Positions 9,343 to 63,232 of a DNA stretch of 64,000 nucleotides are shown here, in pieces. Under the pieces are notes generated by a model. The model was not told the DNA's origin, ran no database searches, and saw only the letters and a program-made list of their open reading frames with translations. The position numbers were made by a program, and so were the translations under genes. Origin of the DNA: Candidatus Vogelbacteria bacterium. GTDB lineage: Bacteria; Patescibacteriota; Minisyncoccia; Phycocordibacterales; XYD1-FULL-46-19. The stretch covers positions 1,509-65,508 of the forward strand of contig JACPIA010000009.1 in assembly GCA_016188295.1 (NCBI GenBank), given 5' to 3'. Every line of letters starts with the position of its first letter. The stretch's first letter is position 1.

Positions 9343-9347
9343 AATTT

Positions 9348-10085: not shown

Positions 10086-10921
10086 ACTTTAATTATACGA
10101 TAACCAAAAATAAGCACTATTAAACCGCTCAAGCCAAATAAAATATAACGCCACCACCACGGACAAACTAAAAACCAAATTCGTTTAACATCAATCAGAT
10201 CACCGTAACCACGATTAAGTTCTAGACTCGCTTGATATAACCCGGTCGGCAAAATTAAATCATTAATATCCCGAATCCGAGTACTATTCGGCAACACATA
10301 CCAGGGGTCAATCACCGCGTGTCCCAATTCCTGTCCGCGCCAATTAGTAATTTTAATTAAACCATAGGGATTCAAATAAGCATTGCCATCATTAGTAAAG
10401 GCGATATAGAAACCAATATTTTGAGTGGGAATATTAATTAAACCGTTTAACAAACCAAATCTAGTCACTCGCCCAGACTCTTTAACTTGACCCGGGATCT
10501 TAATAAATAGCAAGGAATTTAATTGGGTAGTGATCGTCGCTTTATTACCGACTGCTTCTGTGCCTTTAATCACTATGGCGATTTGACCATGACGCGTGCC
10601 TGGATAAGCACCGGTCGGCACACTGACTTTAATTGGTACAGCAATCGTTTGATCAGGATTGAGAGTCAAAGTGGTAGTAGGCACGGTTACATTCTCGATC
10701 AAAGAATTTTGCTCAACCACCAGATCTTCTACAGCTAATCTAAAATCCACTGACTGAGTTAAACTATTAATCACTGTCAGATTAATCCATTTAGTTTCAC
10801 CCGGATTAATTATCACTTCTTGTTTAGCGGGAGTAATTGAAATGACGGCTGGTGGTGCCGCCTCGACCAGATCAAATAAACCAAAACTGATTCCGATCAA
10901 TCCTAAAAATAACCATTTCAT
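10082..10921 (-). CDS. Surface protein with N-terminal signal peptide and C-terminal TM anchor
   Basis: MKWLFLGLIGISFGLFDLVEA at the N-terminus and a C-terminal hydrophobic WFLVCPWWWRYILFGLSGLIVLIFGY. Start and stop overlap the neighbouring genes by 4 nt. Confidence 0.5.
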   Translation of the reverse strand: MKWLFLGLIGISFGLFDLVEAAPPAVISITPAKQEVIINPGETKWINLTVINSLTQSVDFRLAVEDLVVEQNSLIENVTVPTTTLTLNPDQTIAVPIKVSVPTGAYPGTRHGQIAIVIKGTEAVGNKATITTQLNSLLFIKIPGQVKESGRVTRFGLLNGLINIPTQNIGFYIAFTNDGNAYLNPYGLIKITNWRGQELGHAVIDPWYVLPNSTRIRDINDLILPTGLYQASLELNRGYGDLIDVKRIWFLVCPWWWRYILFGLSGLIVLIFGYRIIKV

Positions 10922-12012
10922 TGTTTTACCGGGGTTAAGACAAAGATATAATCCTCACCAGTATGATCACGGAAAATCGGCGTAACCACTCCGGCCTTAC
11001 CTGATGGATCAACATTTACATTAACTTTGTCGGAAAACATTTCCGCCACTTTATCCTTTAGACTTTGAGGAGTGGAACTGGTGGCCGGTACCACCACTAC
11101 TCCTTGAGCCGGTAAAGTACTAGGCTTGACACTACTGCCACCAACTGGTAAACGACGCAAAATCTCGCTGATACCGGATTTAATGTCTTTAATATCAGCT
11201 TGAATTTGCGACAAACCCGGATCAACCACTGCTGGTGTCGACACTGATTTTCCGTTAAAAAAGCGTGTCCAATTAGTCATCATATTGGTCCAAAGATTAC
11301 CTAAACTAATTATGGTTTTAGCGGCGAGTGAAAAGACTTGGTCAATAACCTCGGTAATCCACTCCAAAATAGCGACACCACTAAAATTAAGACGGGCGGT
11401 AGCCGCGGTTAGTAATTGCTCTTTACTCGACATCACTGAGAATGGGAGGGAGGTCGTTTGAACGATAAACCACATTGATCCCTGATCAGCCCAAGTTAAA
11501 AGCTCGTCAGTTCTAAGTGCTAATTTGTCAACCAAAATACCGGCTGTCAAATCAAACGTTAGGGCAGTAGAAAAATAGACTTGATCCGCTCCCCAACTTA
11601 AAGTTGTAGCGGTAGTATCTAGTAACGAGACCGATCGCTCTAAAGCAAAATTAGCGGAGGCCAATGCGGAAGTGGGAACCACTATTGATTGAGTCAAGAA
11701 ACCATGAGGGACAATTGTGATTAAAGTAAAGTAGACCAGCACGCCAATTAAGCCGGTCAAAGCCCCACTCATTTTTGTTAAAGTGACTAAACTTGATTGG
11801 AACAAAACCGGATGTAAATGATTAGTAAGCAGTGGCAATTTAGACAAAGCCGATTCGAGAATAAACCACTGATCCTCGATACGCTCGGCCTCTAATTTTT
11901 TTTGGTAACACTGTCTATCTAACTCCGTCTTAGACAATCCTAAACGCTCGCTGGCATTAGCTAGTTTGATATACTTTCTCCCATTATAAAAAAACTCATC
12001 AGCGATGTTCAT
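10918..12012 (-). CDS. Membrane protein, first gene of the surface-protein operon
   Basis: Cytoplasmic N-terminus (ERLGLSKTELDRQ), one TM (LTGLIGVLVYFTLITIV), long extracytoplasmic part. Confidence 0.45.
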   Translation of the reverse strand: MNIADEFFYNGRKYIKLANASERLGLSKTELDRQCYQKKLEAERIEDQWFILESALSKLPLLTNHLHPVLFQSSLVTLTKMSGALTGLIGVLVYFTLITIVPHGFLTQSIVVPTSALASANFALERSVSLLDTTATTLSWGADQVYFSTALTFDLTAGILVDKLALRTDELLTWADQGSMWFIVQTTSLPFSVMSSKEQLLTAATARLNFSGVAILEWITEVIDQVFSLAAKTIISLGNLWTNMMTNWTRFFNGKSVSTPAVVDPGLSQIQADIKDIKSGISEILRRLPVGGSSVKPSTLPAQGVVVVPATSSTPQSLKDKVAEMFSDKVNVNVDPSGKAGVVTPIFRDHTGEDYIFVLTPVKQ

Positions 12013-23408: not shown

Positions 23409-23843
23409 TTATTTAAATAATATTGGTATTTCCACCGCCGCATCGTTTTGCGACAAACCGGAGGGATTATCTCGCTGTAAAATCAAAGTTCCATGAGGAT
23501 TGCCATTATTGGGTTTAGTAAAATTTAACGCCGCTTGGAATGGTACAAACTCCTCCGTCATCCACTCACTTTGAGCTTGGGCCACTCCTTGAGCGATAAT
23601 CAAACCGTCCCAATCGGTGAGCACGACCGGGAAAGAAGCTTCAAAAAACCAAGTGCCGCGCGCCTCACCAGTAATTGACAACGGTGAACTGATTGAATCA
23701 CCAGCCCTAGGAGTAGTAACCCTAATTCTAGAGTCAGTAGTAGCTTGGAGTAAGTCATCAGATTGACTCTTGAACCAAAAAGCACCACCACCCAACATAA
23801 TCATTAGAATTAAGAATCCAATTATAATAATTGATCGTCTCAT
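23409..23843 (-). CDS. Gmad2 (GerM-associated immunoglobulin-like) domain protein, membrane-anchored
   Basis: N-terminal TM, then PLSITGEARGTWFFEASFPVVLTDWDGLIIAQGVAQAQSEWMTEEFVPFQAALNF, matching the Gmad2 signature. Confidence 0.5.
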   Translation of the reverse strand: MRRSIIIIGFLILMIMLGGGAFWFKSQSDDLLQATTDSRIRVTTPRAGDSISSPLSITGEARGTWFFEASFPVVLTDWDGLIIAQGVAQAQSEWMTEEFVPFQAALNFTKPNNGNPHGTLILQRDNPSGLSQNDAAVEIPILFK

Positions 23844-24703
23844 TGGAAATAATCGATCAATGCTTTAACCCCCGCTAAGTTTTGCGACCATTCAATCGTC
23901 TCGTGGTTTTTGAGTTCGACCGTAATAGCGGGGATATTGATTGAGGCTAACCAGCCCTCGGCATCACCGGTAATCGGATAAGCGTCAAAAGATTGTATCG
24001 CCGGGTAACCGGACGCCGTGGCGTAGACAGTCATAATATCAAGAGTCACTGGCAAAATCCCATTTTGACACTCCGAAGCATAAACGGCGTTGGCTTGGCT
24101 ATGCCAAAACACTACTGCTTGCGGTCTATTAGCAAGCACGAAATCACGCAAAGCCATCGCTTCAGGCTCCGAAAAAGCGGCCGTACCAGCACTCACCGGC
24201 CTAGCTTGCCAAGTACTTCGAGCTTGCCATTTGCAATCAAAATTGCGGTTAAGATCCACTTGGTGGGCATTAAATCGGCTAGTAGCTAAAACCGTTTTAC
24301 TAGTTGTCGCTTGGTTCGCCTCAAATAATCCTTCTTGACCCACCACTTTGTACATCCCGTCCGGATTAAGATTAGGGATCACGGTTACGGTTATATTTTT
24401 AGGTACCGACTCGGGATGAGCTTTAAAGTAATCAACAAAAGTGTAAGCCAACAGCACGCTATTCCACTCATAGCCACCATGGATACCGCCAATAAACACT
24501 AATTCAGTCGGGCCGGTACCAAAGTGATAGGCCATAATATTGCGCCCTTCTACGGATTGACCGATAATTTGATACTCAATGGTTGGCTCCGTTACCACCG
24601 GCGGTGAAGCTAATTGACTTCGCTTGTAGACGTAAACTCCCAATCCAATTAGCACTAGTAGTAAAACCGCCCCGACTACTTGTTTACTAAACAACCAAGA
24701 CAT
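23840..24703 (-). CDS. M14-family zinc carboxypeptidase (MpaA/gamma-D-Glu-DAP peptidase-like), membrane-anchored
   Basis: IGQSVEGRNIMAYHFG...GGIHGGYEWN...VIPNLNPDG...DLNRNFDC. Paralog of the next gene. Confidence 0.7.
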   Translation of the reverse strand: MSWLFSKQVVGAVLLLVLIGLGVYVYKRSQLASPPVVTEPTIEYQIIGQSVEGRNIMAYHFGTGPTELVFIGGIHGGYEWNSVLLAYTFVDYFKAHPESVPKNITVTVIPNLNPDGMYKVVGQEGLFEANQATTSKTVLATSRFNAHQVDLNRNFDCKWQARSTWQARPVSAGTAAFSEPEAMALRDFVLANRPQAVVFWHSQANAVYASECQNGILPVTLDIMTVYATASGYPAIQSFDAYPITGDAEGWLASINIPAITVELKNHETIEWSQNLAGVKALIDYFQ

Positions 24704-25587
24704 TATTTAGTATAGTATTTAAGGATCGCTTGAACCCCGGCTTGATTTTTATTCCACTCGGTAGAGGTGTGATTAGTGAGAAGGACACTAATAGCTGGTA
24801 TTTCTTTTTTAGCTAACCAATTAACCAGATCACCAGTAATAGCGTAAAAATCAAAACGCTCATGAGCCGGATAACCTGAAGCCTTGGCATAAGTATTAGT
24901 TAAAATTAAAGTCTCAGGTAAGATGCCATCGTGACAATTAGAGGCAAAGACACCCCCGGCCGAACTGTACCACACTACCACTGCTTTAGGATTTTGATTC
25001 TCAACATAATTTTTGATCGCCAAACTCTCCGGCTCGGAAAAGACAGTACTCCCCGCTTTGACCGGTGTATTTTGCCATACACCGGTGGCTTGCCAATCAC
25101 AATCAAAATTACGATTTAAATCTATTTTATTAGCATTAAAACGACCAGCCACTTGAGCAGTTGATGAAGAAATGACGTCAGCAACCGCAAATTTAGCGGT
25201 CGTGGTACTAATCACTTTAATTAAACCGTCAGGATTTAACACCGGTATCACTGTTACGGTTATATTAGCGGGCACCGCATCAGAATTAGTTTTTAAGTAA
25301 TCCATTAATTCGTAAGCCACTAATGAGGTGTTCCACTCATAGCCACCATGGATACCGCCAATAAACACTAATTCAGTCGGGCCGGTACCAAAGTGATAGG
25401 CCATAATATTGCGCCCTTCCACTGACTGACCAATAATGGTTTTAGTTTTATCTTCTATTACTGGAGTGGTGGTGGCGGTGATTATTGGTGGCAGAGTAGT
25501 AATTACTGTTTCCTGACTGGACCAGAACCAGTAAGCTCCGCCAGCAATGACTAAAATAATAATAATAAAAATTAGGGCGTTTTTCAT
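24703..25587 (-). CDS. M14-family zinc carboxypeptidase, tandem paralog
   Basis: Same motifs. Shares an 89-nt identical DNA tract with the downstream paralog (24462-24550 = 25331-25419). Confidence 0.7.
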   Translation of the reverse strand: MKNALIFIIIILVIAGGAYWFWSSQETVITTLPPIITATTTPVIEDKTKTIIGQSVEGRNIMAYHFGTGPTELVFIGGIHGGYEWNTSLVAYELMDYLKTNSDAVPANITVTVIPVLNPDGLIKVISTTTAKFAVADVISSSTAQVAGRFNANKIDLNRNFDCDWQATGVWQNTPVKAGSTVFSEPESLAIKNYVENQNPKAVVVWYSSAGGVFASNCHDGILPETLILTNTYAKASGYPAHERFDFYAITGDLVNWLAKKEIPAISVLLTNHTSTEWNKNQAGVQAILKYYTK

Positions 25588-32474: not shown

Positions 32475-33338
32475 ATGGCACAGATTGAGATCCTTTTGCC
32501 GTCCGATTACCCACCCTATTTAGCTGAGATTCCCGAGCCGCCAACCAAACTATTTATTGAGGGCAATTTGCCGGGCCCGGATTACCATTTACTCACCGTG
32601 GTAGGTTCGCGTAAATTCTCGCAGTATGGTCGCGAAGCGTGCGAAAAATTGATTACTGGTCTGCGTGGTTACCCGGTGGCAATCGTGTCCGGACTCGCTT
32701 TAGGGATAGATACTATTGCTCATCAAGCAGCCTTAAAAGCAAAGCTACCCACCATCGCCTTCCCCGGCTCTGGTTTAGATCGTAAAGTATTGCATCCCCA
32801 CTCCAACCGGCGCTTAGCCGATGAGATCGTGGCCGCCGGTGGAGCACTAGTGGCCGAGTTTCCACCGACTATGCCAGCCGGTTTACATACCTTTCCTAAA
32901 CGTAACCGTTTAATGGCTGGCTTAGCTGAAGCAACTTTAGTGATTGAGGCTGGCGAAAAATCGGGGACTTTAATTACCGCGCGACTGGCCCTAGATTATA
33001 ATCGGGAGGTGCTAGCCATACCAGGCTCAATCTTTAGCCCTAGTACTTTAGGAACTAATGAATTAATTAGAAGAGGCGCAACAGTGGTCACCAAGTCCGA
33101 ACATATTTTAGATGTGTTTGATTTAGTCCAAGTCGGCGTTGTTAGCCAACCAACTTTATTCGAAAAAGTATCTGATAAAGAAAAAATCATTTTAGAGTTA
33201 TTAGCGATCGAGCCTTTGCCCCGCGACGAAGTGATCGCTCGCTCCCTACTTACCATCAGTGAAGCCAATACCACTTTAGCGATGTTAGAAATCAAAGGCG
33301 TGATTATGGAGAGTTTAGGTGAGATTAGATTAATGTAA
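32475..33338 (+). CDS. dprA: DNA processing protein DprA/Smf
   Basis: VVGSRKFSQYGREA...IVSGLALGIDTIAHQAAL...RNRLMAGLAEATLVIEAGEKSGTLITA. Confidence 0.85.
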   Translation: MAQIEILLPSDYPPYLAEIPEPPTKLFIEGNLPGPDYHLLTVVGSRKFSQYGREACEKLITGLRGYPVAIVSGLALGIDTIAHQAALKAKLPTIAFPGSGLDRKVLHPHSNRRLADEIVAAGGALVAEFPPTMPAGLHTFPKRNRLMAGLAEATLVIEAGEKSGTLITARLALDYNREVLAIPGSIFSPSTLGTNELIRRGATVVTKSEHILDVFDLVQVGVVSQPTLFEKVSDKEKIILELLAIEPLPRDEVIARSLLTISEANTTLAMLEIKGVIMESLGEIRLM

Positions 33339-35667: not shown

Positions 35668-36348
35668 CTACCACAGAGGACCGTCCTCTGTGGTAGTAAG
35701 TGTGTTATAATTTAGCCAATCTTCTAAAAATTGTTCAAAATCCAAATTGGACTCAAAATAGGTTGGGAAAGATTTTTGGTCTAAAATCCTAGATTCTTGG
35801 CGACTATCACCAATATAATCTTGATAGCTAGAATATCGGTAATCAGACAAATATTTCTTGGTTTTAATTATATTTTTTATACCATCTTCCCGCCAATTTG
35901 GTTCAATTAATTTAACTGGGTTTAAATGAATATAAGAAAACAAGTATTTAAGGTAGCGATCAGCATCAATATATTGGGCTTGAAAACGACTCTCAAATAG
36001 AGAACCACGTCTTTTCTTGGTCAAATTAAAATACATCGAATAAGCCGTCAGCAATTTCTTCATAAACAAACTAGTCCCGCCCTCTCGATGCTCTCGAATC
36101 AATAAATGGAAATGGTTAGGCATTAGACAATAAGAACCAATACTGACTAATGTTTTTTGTCGATCAAAGTCAAAAATTTTATTTGGTGGTATATCTCGTA
36201 CTGTGATACTCCTAGTAGAATTACAAAGGTAGAGTAGTTTAATAAAACGATTATAATCAGAGTGATTTAGAAAAATATTTCTTTTGTCATTGCCACGGCT
36301 GTAAATATGATAATATTCATCAATGGCAAATTCGATCTTACGTTCCAT
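35668..36348 (-). CDS. Y1 HuH tyrosine transposase (IS200-like / REP-associated RAYT-like)
   Basis: HuH motif CLMPNHFHLLI. Downstream catalytic-Tyr motif YIHLNPVKL, as in RAYTs (YIxxNPV). 226 aa. Confidence 0.65.
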   Translation of the reverse strand: MERKIEFAIDEYYHIYSRGNDKRNIFLNHSDYNRFIKLLYLCNSTRSITVRDIPPNKIFDFDRQKTLVSIGSYCLMPNHFHLLIREHREGGTSLFMKKLLTAYSMYFNLTKKRRGSLFESRFQAQYIDADRYLKYLFSYIHLNPVKLIEPNWREDGIKNIIKTKKYLSDYRYSSYQDYIGDSRQESRILDQKSFPTYFESNLDFEQFLEDWLNYNTLTTTEDGPLW

Positions 36349-40122: not shown

Positions 40123-41814
40123 TTACATTGTCTCCCAGCCATATTTGACAACATTTTTAACTGCTTTTTTAGTTGTCCAAATACCAGCTTTAATCGCTAC
40201 CTTTTTAAGGGAAATAACTGTCCCGGGCGATAATTGTCGATCTGAGATTTTACCACTGATACCCCACTCTTTAACCCCGATACCATTCTCTTTAGCCGCT
40301 TCTTTAGCTGCTTCTAAAATTTGAGCATCGGTTGGATTGTTCACCCCATGATGAACTAAATAATTTTTAGTGATATTCCAGAGATTGCCATCTGTTAGTA
40401 AGACTTCTTCCTCGATCGATAATTCGGGCAACGATAAAGATTCTGGATCGGCGCGCTTACCGCCCAAAAAGTTACTGACCCAATCTTTGACTTTACCACC
40501 ACTGGGAATATTAGAACTATCAGAAATCGCCGGAACTTCACTGGTACCAACCGCCTGCTTTATGACATGTTTAGCCCCTTGACCAATTGCTGTCTTAACT
40601 TGTCTACCGCCCCACCAAGCGCCAACCTTAACACTACCGACATAAGTTACCACACCGATGGCCACACTGGCCAAAGCGGCCTCAATGCCCGCCGCGACAT
40701 AACGCTTATACCACTCCTGATCTAAATTTTTACGGAAAAGTTGTTGGTGATTGATTAAATCACGAGTCATCTGACTGTGTCGTAAACTCTTAATCGAACC
40801 TCTGATTTCATCCTCGATTTGAATCAAACGTTCAGGCGTCAAAATCAACTGGCCACGAAAATTGGTCTTGCCTAAGAATTTAGTCTGAACTTCATTTAAC
40901 GATTGAGATACAATCCGGTCTTCAAACGCCTGATTAGTTTGAATCTTTTCGCTCGAGACTAATTGCGATGTCGCTTCGTATTGGTCGGCAGTAATGAAAT
41001 CACCTTCGTTCAAAGTTTTTAGAATACTATTCATTCGCTCGGCTTCGTGCTGGGCCTCATCATGGGATAATCGTCCCGATTCTTGGCGAATAGAGGCAGA
41101 TTGATTACTAAGATCCTGAGCCAACTCGCTCGTCTTAGTCCTAAAACCTTCAGCCTGATGCACCTCCCAAAAACCAAAAGTGCTTAAGCCCTTGATCCGC
41201 TCCCGAGCAAAACGCCAAGCATTAACCGCTTTCTCGGTAATGAGGATTTTGCCTAAATCTACACCAGCCTCCTTAAAACGTCGCCAAGCTAATTGTTGGG
41301 CTGTTTCGCCAGCAAGTTTAGGGGGTTTCGATTCGTCTTCCGGCGTCCAGCCAAGTTCTAACCCAGTTTCATTGTCTTTCGCTTCCTCACTTATTGATAA
41401 TTCACTATCTCCAGACTCGTCTTCTAATCTAGGACCTAAGATTAGACCGCTATCCTCCGCCTCGTCTGATATCGATTCCGCGACCGATTCTCCGGTTGGC
41501 AAATTCTCCGGTGGTGGACTTTGTCTAGCCATCTCAGCCAATTGTTGTTGCCAAGCTAATTCTTCTGCTTTTGCTTTTTCTCCTGCTTCTGCTTTCGCTT
41601 TCGCTAATTTTCTTTGTTGGGCCTGCTCTTTTTGAGTTAATACTTCGGTCTCACGATAAATTAGACCTGCCTTATTTTTAGAACTACCAGTAAAACCAAA
41701 TCTTCTAGCCTTATCTTGGTCACCTTGATCAAATCGAGGTGGTCCAGCTTTTGTTTTTCCCACAAACCTTGATTTTGGTTTTGGTCCTAACCTTGGCTTT
41801 TCAAACTTACGCAT
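40123..41814 (-). CDS. Large hypothetical protein with basic K/A-rich N-terminal region and one TM helix
   Basis: Start moved to MRKFEKPRLG (41814). The longer ORF to 41976 would overlap tRNA-Trp. KAKAEAGEKAKAEE repeats, TM VAAGIEAALASVAIGVVTYVGSV. Confidence 0.45.
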   Translation of the reverse strand: MRKFEKPRLGPKPKSRFVGKTKAGPPRFDQGDQDKARRFGFTGSSKNKAGLIYRETEVLTQKEQAQQRKLAKAKAEAGEKAKAEELAWQQQLAEMARQSPPPENLPTGESVAESISDEAEDSGLILGPRLEDESGDSELSISEEAKDNETGLELGWTPEDESKPPKLAGETAQQLAWRRFKEAGVDLGKILITEKAVNAWRFARERIKGLSTFGFWEVHQAEGFRTKTSELAQDLSNQSASIRQESGRLSHDEAQHEAERMNSILKTLNEGDFITADQYEATSQLVSSEKIQTNQAFEDRIVSQSLNEVQTKFLGKTNFRGQLILTPERLIQIEDEIRGSIKSLRHSQMTRDLINHQQLFRKNLDQEWYKRYVAAGIEAALASVAIGVVTYVGSVKVGAWWGGRQVKTAIGQGAKHVIKQAVGTSEVPAISDSSNIPSGGKVKDWVSNFLGGKRADPESLSLPELSIEEEVLLTDGNLWNITKNYLVHHGVNNPTDAQILEAAKEAAKENGIGVKEWGISGKISDRQLSPGTVISLKKVAIKAGIWTTKKAVKNVVKYGWETM

Positions 41815-41846
41815 ATTTTTGCTTTTTATTATACCACAATAATAAG

Positions 41847-41918
41847 CGGGCCCACCCCGACTCGAACGGGGAACGACGGTTTTGGAGACCGCTGTTTTAC
41901 CATTGAAACTATGGACCC
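41847..41918 (-). tRNA. tRNA-Trp (anticodon CCA)
   Basis: Manual fold: acceptor GGGTCCA/TGGGCCC, anticodon stem GCGGT/ACCGT, loop CTCCAAA, T-arm CCCCG-TTCGAGT-CGGGG. Confidence 0.75.
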
Positions 41919-41938
41919 AGACAAAGTTAGTATGACAC

Positions 41939-41968
41939 AAAAATAGGCTGTCCTCCAGCCTATTTTTT
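41939..41968. terminator. Bidirectional intrinsic terminator (A5-TAGGCTG-tcctc-CAGCCTA-T6)
   Basis: Hairpin flanked by an A-run and a T-run. Overlaps the rpmG stop codon. Confidence 0.45.
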
Positions 41969-42118
41969 CGACTCATTATGGGTAGTTTGCTTGCGACACC
42001 ATCTGCAGTATTTTTTAAGCTCGATTTTACGCTCCACCCCTTTGCGATTTTTACGGCTCCAGTAATTGGTCCGCTTACAGGTTTTGCAGACTAGCTTGAT
42101 TAGATTATCTTGCGACAT
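41960..42118 (-). CDS. rpmG: 50S ribosomal protein L33 (C4 zinc-ribbon type)
   Basis: Own translation: MSQDNLIKLVCKTCKRTNYWSRKNRKGVERKIELKKYCRWCRKQTTHNESKK. Matches L33 (C-x2-C...KYC-x2-C). Too short for the ORF track. Confidence 0.8.
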   Translation of the reverse strand: MSQDNLIKLVCKTCKRTNYWSRKNRKGVERKIELKKYCRWCRKQTTHNESKK

Positions 42119-55179: not shown

Positions 55180-56340
55180 GTGATGATCGCATTGCGCAAA
55201 TACCACGGTGTTGGCCTGGCATTGTACGGGGTGTTGTTCTTGATTACCTACGTACTACTGTCTCTGCCAAATCCGGAGGACATGTGGTTGGCAAAGGATT
55301 TTAACATCTTCGTCGCCCTTCTCGTCTTGTTCTTACTCTACGGCACAATACCGAGCATTAAATCGGTTGCTGGAGATGAGATTGCTATTTTGTACTTTTA
55401 CGGAATAGCTCTCGCTGAAGCTCTTCCTGGTCCAGTGTGGGTGCCCTATGGCATCATTCAGTTGGTTAAAGGATCAACCAGGACAAATCAACGAGAGTTG
55501 CCTGACGGCAGAGTGTTTGAGGGCGACACCAAAGACACTGGCGGTGTAGTACCAGCCGGTCTGGTCGCACCAATTAGGATCCCCTTCGGACTGTATGACC
55601 AAAAGGATGAATTAAAGAGAAGGAAGATTGGGAAGAAACACCAGTACATAATCCCAGAGACTAAGGCTTCAGAAAAAGACCCCTTGGCAAAGCGCCGAAT
55701 AGTCGCAACAGTAACTATCTTTTACACCTGGGTCATCAATCCAACGGCGGGCGAATTCCTCAAATTCCTCCAAGTTATCGGTATACGTTCTCTGGAGGAG
55801 CAAATCCAAGAAGTAAACAAACAAATTGAGGATACGATCATCGGCACGTTGAGCGGCAACTTAGCATTGATGACTGCCGCGACAGCCAGACTCAACTTCG
55901 ACGCCATTAAAGAGGAGATTGATGTTGAAGTTCAAGGGTTAGTTAGTGGCTGGGGAATAACAGTAAAAACCATCCAGCTTAAGAGTATAGATTTCAACCA
56001 TACTCTCAACAAAAGTCTGACTGATTTGGCCGAGGCAGACAATAAAGCCCAGACCAAAATCGTCGATGCCGAAGCGGAAAGAGTCACAAGAGTGAAAGAA
56101 GGTGCGGGTACAGCACAGGCTCGATACTCTTTCATGGCCGCCGAAGCAAAGGGTAACACAGCCTTAGCCAACGCTGCTCGTGATCCAGTCGCCAGAGAAA
56201 TGGCCCATCTCCAAGCCGCTGTAGCAGTAGCCAAAGAAACAAAGCCAATCATCAACTCTGGTAATGACAGTGCGTTAGGCGCATTGATTAACTTGACCAA
56301 CATCAACGCGGCTAGAAAAACAACCGAGGAGAAATCATAA
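55180..56340 (+). CDS. SPFH/band-7 (stomatin/HflK-like) membrane protein
   Basis: Two N-terminal TM helices. SPFH core (TVTIFYTWVINPTAGEFLKF...WGITVKTIQLKSIDFN...KAQTKIVDAEAERVTRVKEGAGTAQA) and Ala-rich coiled-coil tail. Confidence 0.65.
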   Translation: MMIALRKYHGVGLALYGVLFLITYVLLSLPNPEDMWLAKDFNIFVALLVLFLLYGTIPSIKSVAGDEIAILYFYGIALAEALPGPVWVPYGIIQLVKGSTRTNQRELPDGRVFEGDTKDTGGVVPAGLVAPIRIPFGLYDQKDELKRRKIGKKHQYIIPETKASEKDPLAKRRIVATVTIFYTWVINPTAGEFLKFLQVIGIRSLEEQIQEVNKQIEDTIIGTLSGNLALMTAATARLNFDAIKEEIDVEVQGLVSGWGITVKTIQLKSIDFNHTLNKSLTDLAEADNKAQTKIVDAEAERVTRVKEGAGTAQARYSFMAAEAKGNTALANAARDPVAREMAHLQAAVAVAKETKPIINSGNDSALGALINLTNINAARKTTEEKS

Positions 56341-57083
56341 TGACCACTGGTCAAGTAGTTATGTTGCTGTTGGTTATTGCCGCGATTATGGTGGTAAACA
56401 ACAAGAGCAACCCACTCAATAGAGTATCCGGCCTTTTCAAAAAAGGAATCGGTGGCAATTTTGACTGGTGCAAGCAAACGCTTAAGAACGAATACTTCCA
56501 AATCCTTGGGGCTGGAGCCATCTTTATAACAATGCTCTATCTCCTCGCTCCGGCGGTGTGGGGATGGTTCTGGGGTACCGAGGCTGATCCGGTCAAAGGT
56601 GTAAACGCTTTTGAGGGTCATCGGATACTGATTTTCGGTATCATCTTGTGGCTCATGATTCGATTCCTACTATTTAAAGAGGAGTCGAGTAAGGCCACCA
56701 AAACCGCTCTCTCTCGCCTTGCCACTTTAGTCTTGATTGGGGCAATCGCTTTTGAGTTTTACCAAGACTTCGGCCAAAAAGCCACTACGGCAGTGGCAAG
56801 TATTAAGTTACCATGGTCGGCGAACTCGGAAGCGAAAGTGCTACACCTTGGTGGAGGTCATTATGATAAAAACCCGATTAAGGTGCCGGTTGGAGCGAAG
56901 CAGAAAATTCTGCCGTTACCGGCCAAGACAATAATCAGGGAGACCCTCCCTCCAGATGCCCGTGGCTGGAACGTCAAAGACACTCTCATGAGTGACGGCG
57001 TTACCGCCTGGCGCGAAGGACGAGAGATCGTGATCTCATCAAGCATTGATGTACCAGATGAGATCATCTTCAACTGGTGGTAG
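56340..57083 (+). CDS. Membrane protein translationally coupled to the SPFH gene (possible NfeD-like partner)
   Basis: TAATG overlap. Three to four TM helices followed by a soluble C-terminal domain. Partner role inferred from operon position only. Confidence 0.4.
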   Translation: MTTGQVVMLLLVIAAIMVVNNKSNPLNRVSGLFKKGIGGNFDWCKQTLKNEYFQILGAGAIFITMLYLLAPAVWGWFWGTEADPVKGVNAFEGHRILIFGIILWLMIRFLLFKEESSKATKTALSRLATLVLIGAIAFEFYQDFGQKATTAVASIKLPWSANSEAKVLHLGGGHYDKNPIKVPVGAKQKILPLPAKTIIRETLPPDARGWNVKDTLMSDGVTAWREGREIVISSSIDVPDEIIFNWW

Positions 57084-57111: not shown

Positions 57112-57150
57112 GGGGCGGGAGACAATCGTATTGTCCTCCCGCCCTTTTTT
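57112..57150 (+). terminator. Strong intrinsic terminator (GGGGCGGGAGACAAT-cgt-ATTGTCCTCCCGCCC + TTTTTT)
   Basis: GC-rich 14-bp stem plus T6 run after the SPFH operon. Confidence 0.6.
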
Positions 57151-57166: not shown

Positions 57167-57418
57167 TTAATTGCAACCAATCGTATTGCAGATAATCTGC
57201 AAGATTCCATACACTGCCACCATAATAAAGAGTCCGGTTACTCCCCAGATCATATGCCGGCGGCCAACGATTCGAGCCTCATCACTGTCCTCCCCGCTAA
57301 ACAGTTGGAAGACGCCCCACAAAAAGTACAACAGCGCCGCGGCAAACAGTAAAGTAATGACTGGATTAAGGATATTAATTTTAATACTTTCCAGTAGTGG
57401 GATAGAAGTATAGACCAT
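57167..57418 (-). CDS. Pilin-like two-helix membrane protein (array member A)
   Basis: ILNPVITLLFAAALLYFLWGVFQLFSGEDSDEARIVGRRHMIWGVTGLFIMVAVYGIL is the same unit as members B-D. Start moved to MVYTS to avoid overlap with member B. Confidence 0.45.
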   Translation of the reverse strand: MVYTSIPLLESIKINILNPVITLLFAAALLYFLWGVFQLFSGEDSDEARIVGRRHMIWGVTGLFIMVAVYGILQIICNTIGCN

Positions 57419-57434
57419 TATTGAATTAACTATT

Positions 57435-57788
57435 CTAGTTTGGAATTTCCGGGGCACTTGGAACTGCAAATTCAGATCCACCTAGAAATACAGTCTGGAC
57501 TAAACCAACCAAGCCCCAAATTGAGACCATTACCGCGATGACGATAACACCATAAACCATAATACTACGAGCGGCTTTTTTATCATCATCTTCCGATGAG
57601 GTAACATATTTAACCAAACCGTAGATAAAGTATAATACGGCAATACCGATTAAAATTGGAATAGCTGTAGCAACTAAACTATCAATACCCCCGAGTAAAC
57701 CTCCGAAATAATCAACATTAACTTCTTGAGCTAAAACAATGAATGGCAACAGTGCCACCGATCCGCTTGTTAAAACTTTTTTAAACAT
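57435..57788 (-). CDS. Pilin-like secreted two-helix protein (array member B; VirB2/TrbC-like topology)
   Basis: Signal peptide MFKKVLTSGSVALLPFIVLAQE, helix 1, polar loop TSSEDDDKKAARSIMVYG, helix 2. Confidence 0.5.
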   Translation of the reverse strand: MFKKVLTSGSVALLPFIVLAQEVNVDYFGGLLGGIDSLVATAIPILIGIAVLYFIYGLVKYVTSSEDDDKKAARSIMVYGVIVIAVMVSIWGLVGLVQTVFLGGSEFAVPSAPEIPN

Positions 57789-57866
57789 AAACCTTTAAAA
57801 CTAATTAATAATTTTTGATAATAATCTAAGCAAAGCCCGACCGTTTGCTATGACTTTATTATACTA

Positions 57867-58586
57867 CTACCGAAATTTAGGTAAAGAGACAGTTGTGGGT
57901 AGCGTGCCGTTAAAAAAGGTTTGGGTCAAAATCCCCACCAACCCCCAGACCGAGACCATTACAAATAGAGCAATTACGCCCCAAATCATCATTTGTTTAG
58001 CTTCCTCACGAGCCTTTTCATCACCAGTATTACGAATTAAATTAGCCAAACCCCAAATAAAGTAAATCAAGGCTAAACCAATAATCAAGCCGATTAAGGG
58101 GTTTAGAATTCCACCAACCACTTTAGTGACTAAACTAGCAAAAGTATCGCCGACAACTCCTCCTCCGCCACCATCAATAGGTAACCCCCCCGTGCCAAGC
58201 GCGTAAGCTATTGGCACTAAACTGGTCGGCGCTATTTGATTAACGGTATTTTGAATTACACTGGAAATCACAAAAGCACCAAGGACGATCGCCGCGCCGA
58301 TAATCGTCCAAAAAAAGGCTTCTTTAGCCTCGCTTAATTTACTTTCATTGCCTTGAGCTTGGACAAAGAGGAAGCCGACGTAAATAATCGCGATGACTAA
58401 AATCGGCACGCCAATTTGGATCACTAGGTTCAGTAAAGTTTTAAGCAAGTCTTGAACATTATCAATATTGGTCGGATTATCGATTTGAAATCGAACTGAT
58501 ATATTTTCTCCAACATTTGCAGCGTAAGCTACTCCCCCGACTGACAATAAAGTGATGATAATTAGAATTAGGGCTAAATATCTCAT
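57867..58586 (-). CDS. Pilin-like protein with internal tandem duplication of the two-helix unit (array member C)
   Basis: Signal peptide, then unit 1 (...FVQAQGNESKLSEAKEAFFWTIIGAAIVL...), Gly-rich linker, and unit 2 (...IRNTGDEKAREEAKQMMIWGVIALFVMV...). Confidence 0.5.
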   Translation of the reverse strand: MRYLALILIIITLLSVGGVAYAANVGENISVRFQIDNPTNIDNVQDLLKTLLNLVIQIGVPILVIAIIYVGFLFVQAQGNESKLSEAKEAFFWTIIGAAIVLGAFVISSVIQNTVNQIAPTSLVPIAYALGTGGLPIDGGGGGVVGDTFASLVTKVVGGILNPLIGLIIGLALIYFIWGLANLIRNTGDEKAREEAKQMMIWGVIALFVMVSVWGLVGILTQTFFNGTLPTTVSLPKFR

Positions 58587-58594
58587 AAAATCAA

Positions 58595-58972
58595 TTATAA
58601 ATTAACGACGCTTGTTTTAATAAAGACCACCGCAATTGCTTTAACGATGGCATAAGCACCCAAGGCCAGTGCAAAACCAATTAAAGTGTTGGTGAATATC
58701 GCTTTAGCCTCTTTACGAGCCCCGTCGTTGCCGGGATTAAGCACGATCTTAATCCCCGCCCAAGCAAAACCCACTACCGCCAAAGGGGTAGCAATATCAA
58801 CGATCAAAAACTTCATCAAAGTATTAGCTAATTTCATTAAATCACCAAAGTGACAACTCTCAATTCCCTCGCAAGGAATCAACCCATTCCAATCCGGATC
58901 AGTTTGACCCAAGACTGATACCGGCAGAGCCATTAAAACAAATAGGATCGTAAAAATTAGATAAGCGCGCAT
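58595..58972 (-). CDS. Pilin-like secreted two-helix protein (array member D)
   Basis: Signal peptide MRAYLIFTILFVLMALPVSVLGQ. Cys-containing mature N-terminus. Unit ...IVLNPGNDGARKEAKAIFTNTLIGFALALGAY... Confidence 0.5.
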   Translation of the reverse strand: MRAYLIFTILFVLMALPVSVLGQTDPDWNGLIPCEGIESCHFGDLMKLANTLMKFLIVDIATPLAVVGFAWAGIKIVLNPGNDGARKEAKAIFTNTLIGFALALGAYAIVKAIAVVFIKTSVVNL

Positions 58973-58975
58973 AAA

Positions 58976-60274
58976 TTATTTCATTAAAGCGTTTAATTCA
59001 TCATCCGCCCGTCGCACCGCTTGTGCCGAGAGCACTCGACCAGTCCCCACCGCATCAATTAGCAAGTTAAAAATCCGATTACTTTGAGTCGGATCCGGAT
59101 CAAGCCAAGTACGAGCCAATAATGCTGATTGATACACTACCGTGCCAAAAGCGCTCTCTACGCCCGCCGCGAGCAAGTCGCGGCGGGCCGGCGCTACGCC
59201 TAATTGATCCGCCATTAACGCCACACTCTCCGGCGCGGCTAAAAGCTTGGCCGCCGCTTGAGCGGCGGCCAGTTGTTTGGTCGAGCGGACAACCGCCACT
59301 CCTTGAAAACGTCCGATAGTCTGCTTACGACTAGTTTGGTCGCGTTGAGGTATTATCGCGGCATCAAAGTTTAAATTAGGATTCTTGACCACTAGGCGCG
59401 GACGCTCGCTGGCATAACCCAAATACAACGCTAAAGAACCGATAGTAAAAAAATCTTGAGCATTAGGTAACGCTCGACTCCAAGTGTAAGTGGTCTTAGT
59501 TGGTGCGGCAAACTGAGTGTAAAAATCAATAGCGGCCTCAGCTGGTGCTGGTACAAAACCATAAGCATCAGCCAAGTTACTGACTGGTATCCCCCGTTCA
59601 TAGGCGGTAATGGGTGTCCCGGCCTGCATTGAGAGTAAAGCAACAATATCTTTAGCGTGAGGGACATTAGTACTCTCACCTAAAGCAATCGCACTTTGTT
59701 TAATGATTTTATTGTCACCAAACACTGTTAGATTATTGACAATATTTAAGACCTCACTCCAGCGCTCGGGCACTCGGACAATTCCGGCATTAGTCACCAA
59801 GTCACGATTGTAATAAAGCATCAGTGGATCAATAGTCAATGGTAGAGCCAGCACTCCTTCCGGCGCGATAAAAATCTGAGCCCCCTCCACAAAATTATTT
59901 TTAAAAGTGGCTAACGGATACGTTTTAGCATCAAACGGAGTCAATTTATTACGTTGACGGATAATCATCGTATCATTAAATAGTAATAAGTCAGGTCCGG
60001 CACCTTGAGTCAGAGCTTCCACTAAATCACTCTCAAGCTGCTCCGGCGCTTTATAAACATAATTAATACTAAATTGTTTTTTGGCCGCTTTATTGACCTC
60101 ATTGATTACCGGCTCCATTACTGGAAGTGAATTAGTCCCCCACAAAGTGAGCCTGATACTATTATTGGCTAATCCACCACTGTAGCCCGGTATTATTCCT
60201 GAAAACACTAACACCCCGATAATCAAAGCCGCCCCAAAAACGATCAGTAAAATAATTTGAAACCAGTCTTTCAT
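58976..60274 (-). CDS. Membrane-anchored extracellular solute-binding protein (family-1 SBP fold-like)
   Basis: N-terminal TM anchor, then LTLWGTNSLPVMEPVINEVNKAAKK...GAGPDLLLFNDTM... resembling sugar-type SBPs. No permease or ATPase genes nearby. Confidence 0.5.
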   Translation of the reverse strand: MKDWFQIILLIVFGAALIIGVLVFSGIIPGYSGGLANNSIRLTLWGTNSLPVMEPVINEVNKAAKKQFSINYVYKAPEQLESDLVEALTQGAGPDLLLFNDTMIIRQRNKLTPFDAKTYPLATFKNNFVEGAQIFIAPEGVLALPLTIDPLMLYYNRDLVTNAGIVRVPERWSEVLNIVNNLTVFGDNKIIKQSAIALGESTNVPHAKDIVALLSMQAGTPITAYERGIPVSNLADAYGFVPAPAEAAIDFYTQFAAPTKTTYTWSRALPNAQDFFTIGSLALYLGYASERPRLVVKNPNLNFDAAIIPQRDQTSRKQTIGRFQGVAVVRSTKQLAAAQAAAKLLAAPESVALMADQLGVAPARRDLLAAGVESAFGTVVYQSALLARTWLDPDPTQSNRIFNLLIDAVGTGRVLSAQAVRRADDELNALMK

Positions 60275-60765
60275 ATTGTTTTAGTTAAAATAAGACCAAA
60301 GTGATGCGAGCCGGCCGTAACCTCACCCACTAGTCTAAAACCACCTTGCGTTAAAACCTCTTTGACCGCACTAACTGATTTTTGCCAGTCAATTACCACC
60401 ACTCTACCGCTCGGTTTTAAAATCCGCGCCACTTCTTTGACTAATATATAACTGTGAGTGCTTAATGAGAGCACATTGGCCACCAATACCCAATCAGCCA
60501 CCTCATCGGGTAAAGTGGTACCACCTAAAACCTCAGCATCCGCCCACAAAGGCTTGACCATCTTTAAATTAAACTGCTGGACTGTCGCGCCTATTTTAGT
60601 CACCAACTCTTTTTGAATCTCAATGGCGTAAATAATACCATTACCGCCCACCCGCTCGGCTAAAGCTTCAAGATAAGCGCCGCTACCGGCGCCGATATCC
60701 ACTACGGTTTGACCATTTTCGATACCAAGTGATTTAACAATCGAACCAGGATTAGCAAAGGCCAT
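60271..60765 (-). CDS. Class I SAM-dependent methyltransferase
   Basis: VVDIGAGSGAYLEAL (motif I), IIYAIEI (motif II). 164 aa. Confidence 0.7.
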   Translation of the reverse strand: MAFANPGSIVKSLGIENGQTVVDIGAGSGAYLEALAERVGGNGIIYAIEIQKELVTKIGATVQQFNLKMVKPLWADAEVLGGTTLPDEVADWVLVANVLSLSTHSYILVKEVARILKPSGRVVVIDWQKSVSAVKEVLTQGGFRLVGEVTAGSHHFGLILTKTI

Positions 60766-60796: not shown

Positions 60797-63232
60797 TTAT
60801 AAACAAGTGAGCGAGGCTAAAGTATCATCTGGACGCAACTTCATAATCCGGACTCCTTGAGTTTGGCGACCGAGTGTGGAGATTTCGTCAAGTTTAGTAC
60901 GAATTACTTGCCCTTGGCGCGAGATCGCCACAATCTCGGAAACATCCTCAGTGATGACTCGTGCGGCCATTAAACCACCAGTTTTGCCGGTAATTTGAGC
61001 TGTCTTAATCCCCGAGCCACCACGTTTTTGGACTTTGTACTCGCTCAATTTGGTCTTTTTGCCTAGACCATTTTCTCCCATCACTAAATAACTGCCGATT
61101 TTAGCCACCGGCGTAATGGCATCAGCGCCAATTATGAGATCACCTTTAGTGAGGCGCATCGCTCTAACACCGGCGGCAGTACGACCCATCGCCCGAATAT
61201 CTGACTCTTTAAATCTAATTGATTGGCCGCGCTTAGTAGCCAAAATTACTTCATCACCTTTATCGACCGTAACCACCGAAAGTAATTGATCGCCCGCCGT
61301 CAATTTAATAGCAATAATCCCACTACGCCGGACATCACTAAAACTTTGTCCGGCTACTTTTTTAGCCACTCCTTGTTTGGTAACCATTATCAAAGCCTGT
61401 GGCGCCTCGCTTTTAGATTTGGGAATCGCCAACACCGAGGTGATTTTTTCCTCATCGGAGAGTGCTAAAAAGTTCATCACCGATTTACCCCGCGTGGCAC
61501 GCTTACCCTCCGGCACATCATACATTTTAATTTGATAGGCTTTGCCTTTGTCGGTAAAAAAGAGTAGATCATCGTGAGTATTGGCGGTTAAAAAGAGGGT
61601 CACAAAATCTTCTTCTTTAACATTTAGATCAATGACACCCACCCCACCGCGCTTTTGGGATTTATACTCACTAGGATCAGTGCGCTTAATGTAACCACCG
61701 GCGGTAAGCACCAAAACATTATCGGTCTCCGGTACCAAATCCTCCACCGTAATTTCTTTAGCGCCACTTTTAACCACTTTAGTCCGACGAGCATCGGCAT
61801 ATTTGTCTTTAATGGTCACAAATTCGTCGCGGACAATTTTAAGCACTTTTTTGGCATCGGCCAAAATACTTTTGAGTTCTTTGATGAGCACCTGCTTCTC
61901 CGCTAACTCATCCTCTACTTTTTGGCGTTCGAGACCGGCCAACTTTTGCAAACGCATTTCCAAAATCGCTTGCGCTTGAATCGGTGAAAATTTAAACTCT
62001 TTGACTAAATTCTGGTGAGCCTCTTCGGTATCTTTGGAGGCCCGAATGAGTTTAATAATTTTATCAATATGATCAAGCGCAATTTTTAGACCCAATAAGA
62101 TATGCTCGCGCTCCAAAGCACGATCTAAATCAAACTTAGTCCGGCGAGTGACAATTACTTGGCGATGAGAAAGAAACTCCTCCAGCATCACTTTTAGTGA
62201 CAGTAATTTAGGAACACCATCAACTAAAGCCAACATATTGTAGTGGAACATCGTCTCCAAATCGGTGTGTTTATACAATGCATTTAACACTTTTTGCGGG
62301 TGCATCCCCGCTTTAAGATCAATCACCACTCGGATATCTTTAGTGGACTCATCGCGAATATCTTTAATGCCCTCCACTTTTTTATCATGGACCAAGTCAG
62401 CAATCCGAACAATTAACTCCGATTTATTGACTTGATATGGGATCGAACTAATAATAATTTGAAAATTGCCCACTTTATTCTCCACAATCTCGGCCTCGCC
62501 GCGGACCAGTACTCCGCCGCGGCCGGTGCCATAAGCATGGTGAATATCTTTTTGATTGAATACCAGACCGCCGGTTGGGAAGTCAGGACCTTTAACAAAC
62601 TCGAGCAAATCTTCGGTTGTCGCCTCCTCATTGTCGGTTAAATAAATCAGCGCCTCTATTAATTCGCCCAAATTATGGGGCGGAATTTTAGTGGCCATAC
62701 CCACCGCGATACCAACTGTGCCGTTTAAGAGTAAATTAGGGATGACTGATGGCAATACCGTCGGCTCTTGATGAACGCCATCGTAGTTGGGAACAAAATT
62801 AACAGTCTCCTTTTCAATATCAGCGAGCAGTTCAGCTGCCAGTTTAGACATCCGGACCTCGGTATAACGCATAGCCGCCGCGCTATCGCCATCAATTGAG
62901 CCAAAATTACCTTGACCGGCCACTAAGGGGTAACGCATGGCGAAATCTTGGGCCAAGCGGACCATCGCATCATAACAAGCGGTGTCACCATGAGGATGAT
63001 ATTTACCGAGCACATCGCCGACCACAGTGGCCGACTTACGAAACTTAGCATTAGCCGTCAAACCAAGCTCATGCATCGAGTACAAAATGCGACGATGCAC
63101 CGGTTTTAAACCATCACGGACATCAGGTAAGGCGCGAGCGACAATAACCGACATCGCATAGTCCAAATATGAGTCCTTCATCTCCTCGACAATATTGATC
63201 GGGATAATTCCTTTATCTTTAGGTTTGTCCAT
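60797..63232 (-). CDS. gyrA: DNA gyrase subunit A
   Basis: [20 protein letters not shown] with active-site Tyr, C-terminal beta-pinwheel repeats. Confidence 0.9.

Follow-up and report, generated by a model that had tools for sequence, protein, structure and literature searches.

The stretch analyzed here (the window, 64,000 nucleotides of contig JACPIA010000009.1) belongs to a Candidatus Vogelbacteria bacterium. Four of its consecutive minus-strand genes encode five copies of a small two-helix unit of the T4SS_pilin family (PF18895; T4SS, type IV secretion system), beside a gene for an orphan membrane-anchored protein related to MalE-like (family 1) solute-binding proteins (SBPs). A preliminary description, made from the letters and a list of open reading frames (ORFs), had reported four such genes in a row; the ORF list places all ORFs of the locus on the minus strand at the positions given there, and the PF18895 scores bear the four genes out. 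The genes are real: their conservation extends to more than 80 species, and purifying selection acts on them. We identify the locus as the Candidatus Vogelbacteria version of an operon that is inherited vertically and present throughout the class Paceibacteria, in which an orphan MalE-like protein, often preceded by gyrA and a methyltransferase gene, is followed by five two-helix subunits, numbered here by array position as slots 1 to 5. Through the fusion of slots 2 and 3, this genome encodes the five subunits in only four genes. The locus contains the following features:

58976-60274, minus strand: orphan membrane-anchored MalE-like (family 1) SBP-like protein, 432 residues (aa), matching SBP_bac_8 and SBP_bac_1.
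58595-58972, minus strand: slot-1 pilin-like protein, 125 aa, PF18895 at 28.2 bits.
57867-58586, minus strand: slot 2+3 fusion protein, 239 aa (hypothetical protein HYV76_02580), two PF18895 domains, 62.6 bits.
58230-58475, minus strand: slot 2 part of the 239-aa protein, about aa 38-119, which maps to array position 2.
57891-58184, minus strand: slot 3 part of the 239-aa protein, about aa 135-232, which maps to the third gene from the end.
57789-57866, minus strand: non-coding spacer ahead of slot 4, bearing a GGTCG box and a promoter-like site.
57435-57788, minus strand: slot-4 pilin-like protein, 117 aa, PF18895 at 27.2 bits.
57167-57418, minus strand: slot-5 pilin-like protein, 83 aa, PF18895 at 28.3 bits.
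57112-57144, minus strand: GC-rich stem-loop, -25.9 kcal/mol, z = -5.3 against shuffles.
60271-60765, minus strand: small class-I S-adenosylmethionine (SAM) methyltransferase, Pfam Methyltransf_31/11/25.
60797-63232, minus strand: gyrA, upstream of the methyltransferase gene.

Short gaps or overlaps join this minus-strand set throughout, from gyrA to slot 5. The stop of the methyltransferase gene overlaps the SBP start by 4 nucleotides (nt), with both genes co-directional, and the two are probably on the same transcript; a methyltransferase gene lies upstream of the SBP gene in most, not all, related loci. A longer ORF of the last gene, with a GTG start (57167-57481), overlaps the preceding gene. 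Its most likely start is the ATG at 57418, which yields 83 aa, a length also given by an independent gene call on the matching public contig. The stem-loop at 57112-57144 is likely a bidirectional terminator that closes the operon, between the array and a convergent gene pair.

The SBP has homologues (~40% identity over the full length of ~430 aa) in Yonath-, Wolfe-, Nomura-, Taylor-, Zambryski-, and Campbellbacteria, among others. The family comprises 1,944 clusters at 50% identity (E <= 1e-30), and at least 594 species-level genomes carry a relative. We fetched 80 loci with 10-kb flanks, called their ORFs, and searched them iteratively with a pilin hidden Markov model (HMM); counts refer to 77 related loci, with two loci found earlier added and one duplicate removed. 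Loci were placed in the Paceibacteria by gene order, and the submitter label "uncultured Candidatus Saccharibacteria" that many of them bear is treated as unreliable. Pilin-like ORFs lie on the same strand 3' of the SBP gene in 74 of the 77 loci, and the remaining three stop at a contig edge. Complete arrays (n = 60) hold four to eight genes, bar one locus with a single pilin-like ORF, and the mode is five (33 arrays). On the upstream side, gyrA and an MBL-fold gene are conserved, as is the methyltransferase gene in most loci; downstream genes are more variable, with the gene for initiation factor 2 (IF-2) often 4-7 kb off. At the variable downstream boundary of a Yonathbacteria relative (L002/L003, 19334-21317), a REP_ORF2-G2P replication-protein gene and a serine recombinase gene lie ~6 kb downstream of the array, and their presence suggests an integrated element there.

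Membership of the array proteins in PF18895 is secure. A Pfam profile search, as the preliminary description proposed, places all four genes above the family's gathering cut-off of 26.6 bits (28.2, 62.6 over two domains, 27.2, and 28.3 bits). An HMM built from the related loci matches exactly these four ORFs in the window, again with two domains in the 239-aa protein, and precomputed annotation assigns homologues to PF18895, either alone or together with PF04956. The unit consists of a helix, a polar loop such as NTGDEKAREEAKQMMIWG, and a second helix, and the five units share 13-36% pairwise identity in alignment. That this unit occurs once in each of three genes and twice in the 239-aa member, as first described, is confirmed by PF18895, the HMM, hydropathy, and AlphaFold2 (AF2) modeling.

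By hydropathy, the 125-aa and 117-aa proteins each have an N-terminal hydrophobic segment and two transmembrane (TM) helices, the 239-aa protein has an N-terminal segment and four TM helices, and the 83-aa protein has two TM helices and no leader. Together with candidate signal-peptidase sites read from the sequence by the -3/-1 rule of thumb (VLG|Q, AYA|A, and VLA|Q), this suggests signal-peptide-like leaders in three of the four genes, to which the preliminary description had ascribed classical signal peptides. Slot 1 combines its leader with an extracellular Cys-x9-Cys head (GLIPCEGIESCHFGDL) and a two-helix hairpin; the leader of the 239-aa protein carries the AYA|A site; and the slot-4 protein has a leader of the form MFKK...VLA|QE followed by a two-helix hairpin. 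Slot 5 is without a leader in 30 of 33 genomes, its orthologues having two hydrophobic segments. The AF2 model of the 239-aa protein consists of a leader helix and hairpins at 44-76/81-118 and 149-185/190-225, and the Gly-rich linker between the halves, also seen earlier, is disordered at 123-143. A Foldseek search of the Protein Data Bank (PDB) with this model returned nothing at E < 1, a null that says nothing either way because helical hairpins hold too little fold information. A profile of 37 pilins searched against PDB sequences gave matches to TM1-TM2 of beta-adrenergic receptors alone, which we judged spurious, and no solved pilin.

Two other pilin profiles bear on the family. Against the TrbC/VirB2 model (PF04956, cut-off 27.9 bits), the 239-aa protein scores 29.0 bits through its slot-2 half only, slot 1 scores 19.6 bits, and the other two genes have no match. 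Against the NCBIfam model NF045849 (Mbov_0395 pilin-like, cut-off 40 bits), the 239-aa protein reaches 57.2 bits and two of the single-domain genes 29.2 and 24.5 bits, with no match for slot 1; this model is the sole consistent NCBIfam match and the best for three of the four proteins. We also considered that the unit belongs to an unrelated family of small membrane proteins such as holins or bacteriocin immunity proteins, an outcome the preliminary description had itself named. Small two-TM proteins of many families resemble one another, and weak chance matches to other TM families do arise. However, a PHROGs scan yielded no match to holins, immunity proteins, or the like and just two matches to unnamed membrane proteins at E~0.002-0.004, an NCBIfam scan of the array proteins yielded no holin or immunity-protein profile, with a pilin-like conjugal transfer family as its one consistent match, and the genes sit in a chromosomal housekeeping context with no phage genes. 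We regard this explanation as extremely unlikely.

The five units differ from one another in a way that is constant between genomes. The 125-aa protein finds its best match in the first array gene in 58 of 60 genomes, and the N-terminal half of the 239-aa protein in the second array gene in 55 of 60. Counting from the end of the array, the C-terminal half of the 239-aa protein best matches the third gene (36/59 genomes), the 117-aa protein the penultimate gene (42/59), and the 83-aa protein the last gene (45/59). In the 33 complete arrays of five genes, the best cross-genome match falls into the same slot for 161 of 165 proteins, and for slots 1 and 2 the same-slot orthologues elsewhere are closer than the paralogs in their own genome. 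Every slot in these arrays has its own consensus: slot 1 a leader and a PC...C head, slot 2 the motif NP...GFLFV...AK...IGAAI, with FxWG...MxWG...VWGLV...nTF common to slots 3-5. The five units are ancient positional orthologues across the Paceibacteria and no recent paralog expansion. The 239-aa protein is a fusion of neighboring slots 2 and 3, since its halves are orthologous to two different neighboring genes. The same fusion is present in the close relatives L088 and L089, and slots 2 and 3 are separate genes in most relatives.

These data bear on the possibility that the array consists of recently expanded, diversifying paralogs, for antigenic or host-range variation as in the virB2 arrays of Bartonella or Anaplasma, with an internal duplication in the 239-aa protein. 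The low identity between units (13-36%) would suit such an origin, and a 2025 census of Patescibacteria suggests this reading for their arrays generally (PMC12102498). Against it stand the closer same-slot orthologues of slots 1 and 2, the retention of slot by nearly all best matches, and the mapping of the two halves of the 239-aa protein to different slots, which replaces the internal duplication first described with a gene fusion. Against the two close relatives that share the fusion, ratios of nonsynonymous to synonymous substitution (dN/dS) lie at 0.08-0.25 in the pilin genes, 0.07-0.11 in the SBP gene, and 0.02-0.03 in gyrA; these values are gene-wide and rough, with dS saturated above 1. 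They indicate purifying selection on the pilin genes and give no sign of gene-wide diversifying selection. The earlier suggestion of paralog expansion and diversification under selection is thereby contradicted at gene level, and we consider it very unlikely.

The protein encoded upstream of slot 1 scores 59.8 bits with SBP_bac_8 and 48.2 bits with SBP_bac_1 (Pfam), and hydropathy assigns it a single conserved N-terminal TM helix; its sequence matches an NCBI entry from Candidatus Vogelbacteria at 100% identity. Within this anchor F5, Q6, and F24 are invariant or nearly so, which is unusual for a passive anchor. Comparison of the family with Escherichia coli MalE by hhalign gives 96% probability. 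In that alignment the MalE ligand residue E111 falls on the invariant D149 of the SBP, an indirect hint only that a ligand may be bound in the cleft between the lobes; the sugar-stacking tryptophans of MalE are not kept, and W230 aligns to Ser. Besides D149, conserved residues of the ectodomain (about 35-432) are W172, W265, R364, D366, W390, and D392. An AF2 model of P0025, a homologue fused to slot 1, has a predicted local distance difference test (pLDDT) score of 91.7, and Foldseek finds template-modeling scores (TM-scores) of 0.7-0.8, normalized to target, to oligosaccharide SBPs. The nearest solved structures include Thermotoga maritima MalE2 with maltotetraose, the mannotriose-binding CpMnBP1, the cellotetraose-binding CbpB, and a sophoro-oligosaccharide binder; by the profile and fold searches, these nearest structures bind tri- to penta-saccharides. 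The predicted fold is thus two-lobed and MalE-like and resembles that of oligosaccharide-binding proteins. With the MalE-like cluster-B sugar-binding proteins (T. maritima MalE2, CpMnBP1, and Clostridium thermocellum CbpB) the protein shares fold and family profiles. Unlike the SBPs of ATP-binding cassette (ABC) importers, it has a conserved TM anchor instead of a lipobox, no permease or ATPase nearby, and pilin-like genes downstream. Motif scans found no ORF with Walker A and LSGGQ motifs and no ORF with an EAA loop in the window or in 84 loci, and seven annotated neighborhoods contained no ABC-transporter Pfam family. The description of this SBP as lacking a permease or ATPase in the window therefore agrees with both the motif and the Pfam scans.

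The SBP and slot 1 are closely joined. From SBP stop to slot-1 start the gap has a median of 6 nt and does not exceed 15 nt in 55 of 77 loci; the genes overlap in 11 loci. In the window, 3 nt separate the SBP stop from the slot-1 start, and both genes share one reading frame. In at least two lineages SBP and slot 1 form one protein (P0025 and P0121; L058). P0025 and P0121 are 51% identical, which indicates that the fusion was kept through divergence, and L058 shares 36% identity with P0025. The fusions keep the N-terminal TM helix and the whole SBP body, followed by the Cys-Cys head and the hairpin, and in the AF2 model the former slot-1 leader has shrunk to a short non-membrane helix. This layout is as expected if the slot-1 N-terminus lies outside the cell beside the SBP ectodomain. 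The preliminary description had the SBP abutting the array: the adjacency holds, and "abuts" understates what is an invariable partnership, coupled in translation and at times fused.

Other ectodomains occupy the same place elsewhere. In L051 (4722-6347) the first pilin of the array has an N-terminal Peptidase_S8 subtilase ectodomain, and in four further loci it has an N-terminal domain of 200-390 aa of unrecognized family (L018, 11258-12418; L036, 1644-2909; L039, 11308-12714; L084, 11319-12374). Because different ectodomains are fused to slot 1 in other genomes, slot 1 behaves like an anchor or adaptor for extracellular modules, and the PF18895 hairpin has the additional role of a C-terminal anchor for them.

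Within the array, one junction stands apart. The spacer ahead of the penultimate gene (slot 4) has a median of 111 nt and reaches 60 nt or more in 53 of 59 arrays, against medians of 8-17 nt at all other array junctions. In the window, TTTACC-16-TATAAT (57885 to 57858) overlaps the stop of the 239-aa gene and is followed by GGTCG and ATTATTA repeats. Related spacers carry TATAAT-like boxes; the GGTCG box is present in 33 of 54 spacers (1.5 expected), ~46 nt upstream of the start codon, and the ATTATTA repeats follow it in 35 of 54 (5.1 expected). Searches of the spacer found no Rfam family and no significant RNA fold. The spacer may be an internal promoter for slots 4 and 5, with a leader or operator.

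Arrays of VirB2-like pilins in Patescibacteria are already published (Wang et al. 2023, Cell, PMC10633639; Quinonero-Coronel et al. 2025, PMC12102498). The saccharibacterium Southlakia epibionticum has six divergent pilins in the essential T4SS cluster SEML1_0006-0019 (PMC10633639; review PMC12857230), and a need for the T4SS/pilin locus in epibiotic growth is established in this species alone (PMC10633639, PMC12857230). The census counts 441 arrays of 2-11 genes with a mean member identity of about 25%; VirB4 occurs in 2,417 of 3,035 Patescibacteria genomes, Vogelbacteria included, and a pilin gene lies near virB4 in 1,135 of 1,948 assemblies, which makes that arrangement common and not universal (PMC12102498). 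In Paceibacteria, virB4 is near dnaA (PMC12102498). In cultured Paceibacteria, T4SS pilins belong to the five genes of unknown function with signal peptides whose expression is highest (PMC10936435). The census text mentions neither an SBP nor gyrA (PMC12102498), and a full-text literature search for an SBP-pilin association found nothing relevant.

The array described here is of this known kind: it shares with the published Patescibacteria arrays the tandem PF18895 genes, the low mutual identity (about 25% in the census and 13-36% here), the monoderm ultra-small host, the chromosomal locus, and the lack of a relaxase. Whereas the arrays of Saccharimonadia and Microgenomatia lie inside or beside a virB4 cluster, the array here stands apart from any T4SS gene and is linked, next to gyrA, to a MalE-like orphan. 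This five-slot form, coupled to an SBP and detached from the T4SS, is universal in Paceibacteria and seems to be a variant not described before. In the available rows of Table S3 of the census (PMC12102498), five-slot arrays are mostly not listed, presumably missed through near-threshold scores or coverage thresholds; on that portion of the table, published array counts for Paceibacteria are likely underestimates, with profile-based censuses at standard thresholds overlooking most of these arrays. The locus-tag prefix HYV76 of the present genome does not occur in the available part of the census supplement.

We propose that the operon encodes a hetero-oligomeric assembly of VirB2-like subunits at the surface or in the envelope, with an oligosaccharide-binding module attached via slot 1, and we give this reading about an even chance (roughly 0.5). 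The observation of a four-gene array with an SBP is confirmed, and its first interpretation is partly supported. We infer its function as follows. Slots 1-4 would be exported by Sec and cleaved, and slot 5 would be inserted without a leader; all subunits would sit as hairpins with both ends outside the cell. They would come together as a hetero-oligomeric structure, either a filament or a conduit of the VirB2 type, and its builder is probably the VirB4/TrsD/VirB3/VirB6 machine, encoded elsewhere in most Patescibacteria. Slots 4 and 5, with their own promoter-like spacer, are candidates for the abundant subunits. Slot 1 would serve as the adaptor: its N-terminus, outside the cell, would bear or touch an ectodomain, which is the neighboring oligosaccharide-binding protein in most lineages, that protein fused to slot 1 in some, and a subtilase or an unrecognized domain elsewhere. 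The assembly would thereby gain glycan recognition or capture towards the host surface.

Fixed sets of about five distinct, ancient, co-encoded small subunits have an analogy in GspG with GspH-K of type II secretion and in PilA with FimU/PilVWX of type IV pili. In such major-plus-minor pilin sets, some subunits start the fiber or form its tip and can bear an adhesin. The fold and assembly machinery of type IV pilins are unrelated to those considered here: such pilins possess a single N-terminal helix and a site for prepilin peptidase, a motif that the array proteins lack.

Several observations weigh against the proposed assembly, and the first concern the pilin family itself. Filament formation by PF18895 proteins is hypothetical. 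The array proteins resemble TrbC/VirB2 pilins (PF04956; Agrobacterium VirB2, RP4 TrbC) in size, long leader, and two hydrophobic helices with a short polar loop, and one domain passes the TrbC model at 29.0 bits. However, hhalign of 37 candidate phyla radiation (CPR) pilins against four close Agrobacterium-type VirB2/TrbC proteins, a weak test, was not significant (probability 0.3%, E 0.22). The characterization of the unit as a VirB2/TrbC-like pilin thus stands for PF18895 membership and, at a borderline score, for TrbC, and it does not extend to similarity with characterized VirB2; homology to classical VirB2 is only marginally supported by these profiles. TrbC/VirB2 systems also have one major pilin where this array has five distinct subunits, and in the plasmids examined virB2 lies between virB1 and virB3, whereas the array here is unlinked to virB1, virB3, and virB4. 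The Mbov_0395 family of Mycoplasma integrative and conjugative elements (ICEs; NF045849) is found in a monoderm T4SS context, in contrast to the lack of an ICE context here, and only the two-domain protein exceeds its cut-off (57.2 vs 40 bits), the single-domain genes having 24-29 bits or no match.

Synteny raises a second difficulty. The whole region is syntenic, functionally unrelated gyrA included, and because gyrA is equally syntenic, adjacency of SBP and pilin genes alone is weak evidence of a shared function. A Microgenomatia array also exists without an SBP: on a Pacebacteria contig (L085, 10001-11695), neither an SBP nor virB4 lies within 10 kb of a four-gene pilin array, and the array is preceded by one 59-aa ORF and seven genes of 155-568 aa that lack annotation. 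Gene order might be frozen here, with the SBP working with a distant ABC permease or alone as a receptor and the array unrelated to it. The MBL-fold gene, gyrA, the methyltransferase gene, and, further on, IF-2 are equally fixed around the array, and their conserved positions mean that unrelated genes do keep their order in this region. Yet the downstream boundary of the array varies and the junction of SBP and slot 1 does not, most genomes have gaps of 0-15 nt or overlaps there, fusions have been retained in two lineages, one of them down to 51% identity, other ectodomains are fused to the same slot 1, and no neighborhood scanned contains a permease or ATPase. For these reasons we think conserved order without shared function rather unlikely.

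The third difficulty is the absence of assembly machinery from the vicinity. Scanned with Pfam, 46 proteins that cover the window's larger ORFs show a housekeeping stretch (with, for example, MreB/MreC, tRNA synthetases, topoisomerase I, ClpB, IF-2, RelA/SpoT, DprA, and ParB) and no VirB4, VirD4, VirB6, relaxase, or ABC-transporter component, in keeping with the earlier remark that VirB4/B6/D4 genes are missing from it. None of the 77 loci has virB4 within ~10 kb, every ORF of at least 400 aa with a Walker A motif being IF-2. In the available Paceibacteria rows of Table S3, moreover, a single PF18895 gene lies 2-3 genes from virB4 (Wolfebacteria GWC2_39_22: PF18895 gene 55, virB4 gene 58; Nomurabacteria GWF2_30_133: PF18895 gene 343, virB4 gene 345; PMC12102498). 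These rows give the virB4-trsD-virB3 locus a separate, single PF18895 gene, so the five-slot array could serve something else. Finally, the SBP TM helix retained in the fusions would tether slot 1 to the membrane, which speaks against a place for slot 1 at the tip of a long filament.

An alternative that accommodates these last points is a membrane-embedded hetero-oligomer and no pilus: five hairpins (10 TM helices) and the TM-anchored SBP, in fixed stoichiometry, would mediate T4SS-independent uptake or sensing. By analogy, its logic would be that of the tripartite ATP-independent periplasmic (TRAP) or tripartite tricarboxylate transporter (TTT) systems, in which a binding protein serves a non-ABC membrane component. 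Five ancient, non-interchangeable slots are easier to reconcile with a fixed complex than with a homopolymer; the conserved TM helix of the SBP (F5, Q6, F24) is retained and, in a fusion, would hold the slot-1 hairpin in the membrane; no T4SS gene lies within ~10 kb in the 77 loci; the virB4 locus, in the rows of Table S3 cited above, owns a separate pilin gene; and the SBP has no ABC partner nearby. However, the TM helices are without conserved charged or polar residues that could line a translocation path, their small-residue packing motifs are of the WG and GxxxG type, as in pilins, and the family is profile-related to TrbC/VirB2. The high expression reported for Paceibacteria T4SS pilins suits structural subunits (PMC10936435), and sets of one major and several minor pilins are likewise fixed in composition. 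On balance we think such a complex rather unlikely, though clearly less so than diversifying paralogs or an unrelated protein family.

A further, bolder possibility is that in Paceibacteria the five-subunit hairpin assembly is the core of an unrecognized surface organelle and no accessory of a secretion system, with slot 1 joined to a MalE-like oligosaccharide receptor. Glycans of the host surface would then be recognized, and might also be captured and handed inward, by a device that depends on the binding protein and has pilin-like subunits in place of an ABC permease. We offer this tentatively and consider it somewhat less probable than either frozen gene order or a membrane complex.

Other features of the window can be noted briefly. 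Convergent on the array is a plus-strand pair at 55180-57083, an SPFH/Band-7 protein (386 aa) with a 1-nt overlap to a 247-aa protein with four TM helices and no family match. The pair is at the same position in close relatives and diverges fast, with 23-49% identity where gyrA has 92-94%. Four consecutive minus-strand genes at 7300-12012, three of them with secretion leaders, encode proteins of 680 aa (CarboxypepD_reg, with a Gly/Cys-rich start), 245 aa, 279 aa (FixG_C Ig-like, with a C-terminal TM segment), and 364 aa (no Pfam match), and may form a second surface-protein cluster. A 617-aa ORF at 40123-41976 has no Pfam match; its listed start is probably too far upstream, because it overlaps the same-strand tRNA-Trp at 41846-41918. 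The window also contains two MreB paralogs and MreC (1335-2390 and 6061-7095; 542-1444), two tandem M14 carboxypeptidase genes (23840-25587), an IS200-like Y1 transposase (35668-36348), and DprA (32475-33338).

The function of Patescibacteria T4SS genes and pilin arrays is called completely unknown in the literature, though they are essential in the one species tested. The coupling of an SBP to five fixed subunit types turns the vague idea of a host-contact filament into specific questions: which glycan is bound, whether the SBP touches slot 1, and which slots form a fiber. These questions concern the Paceibacteria, the largest class of ultra-small bacteria.

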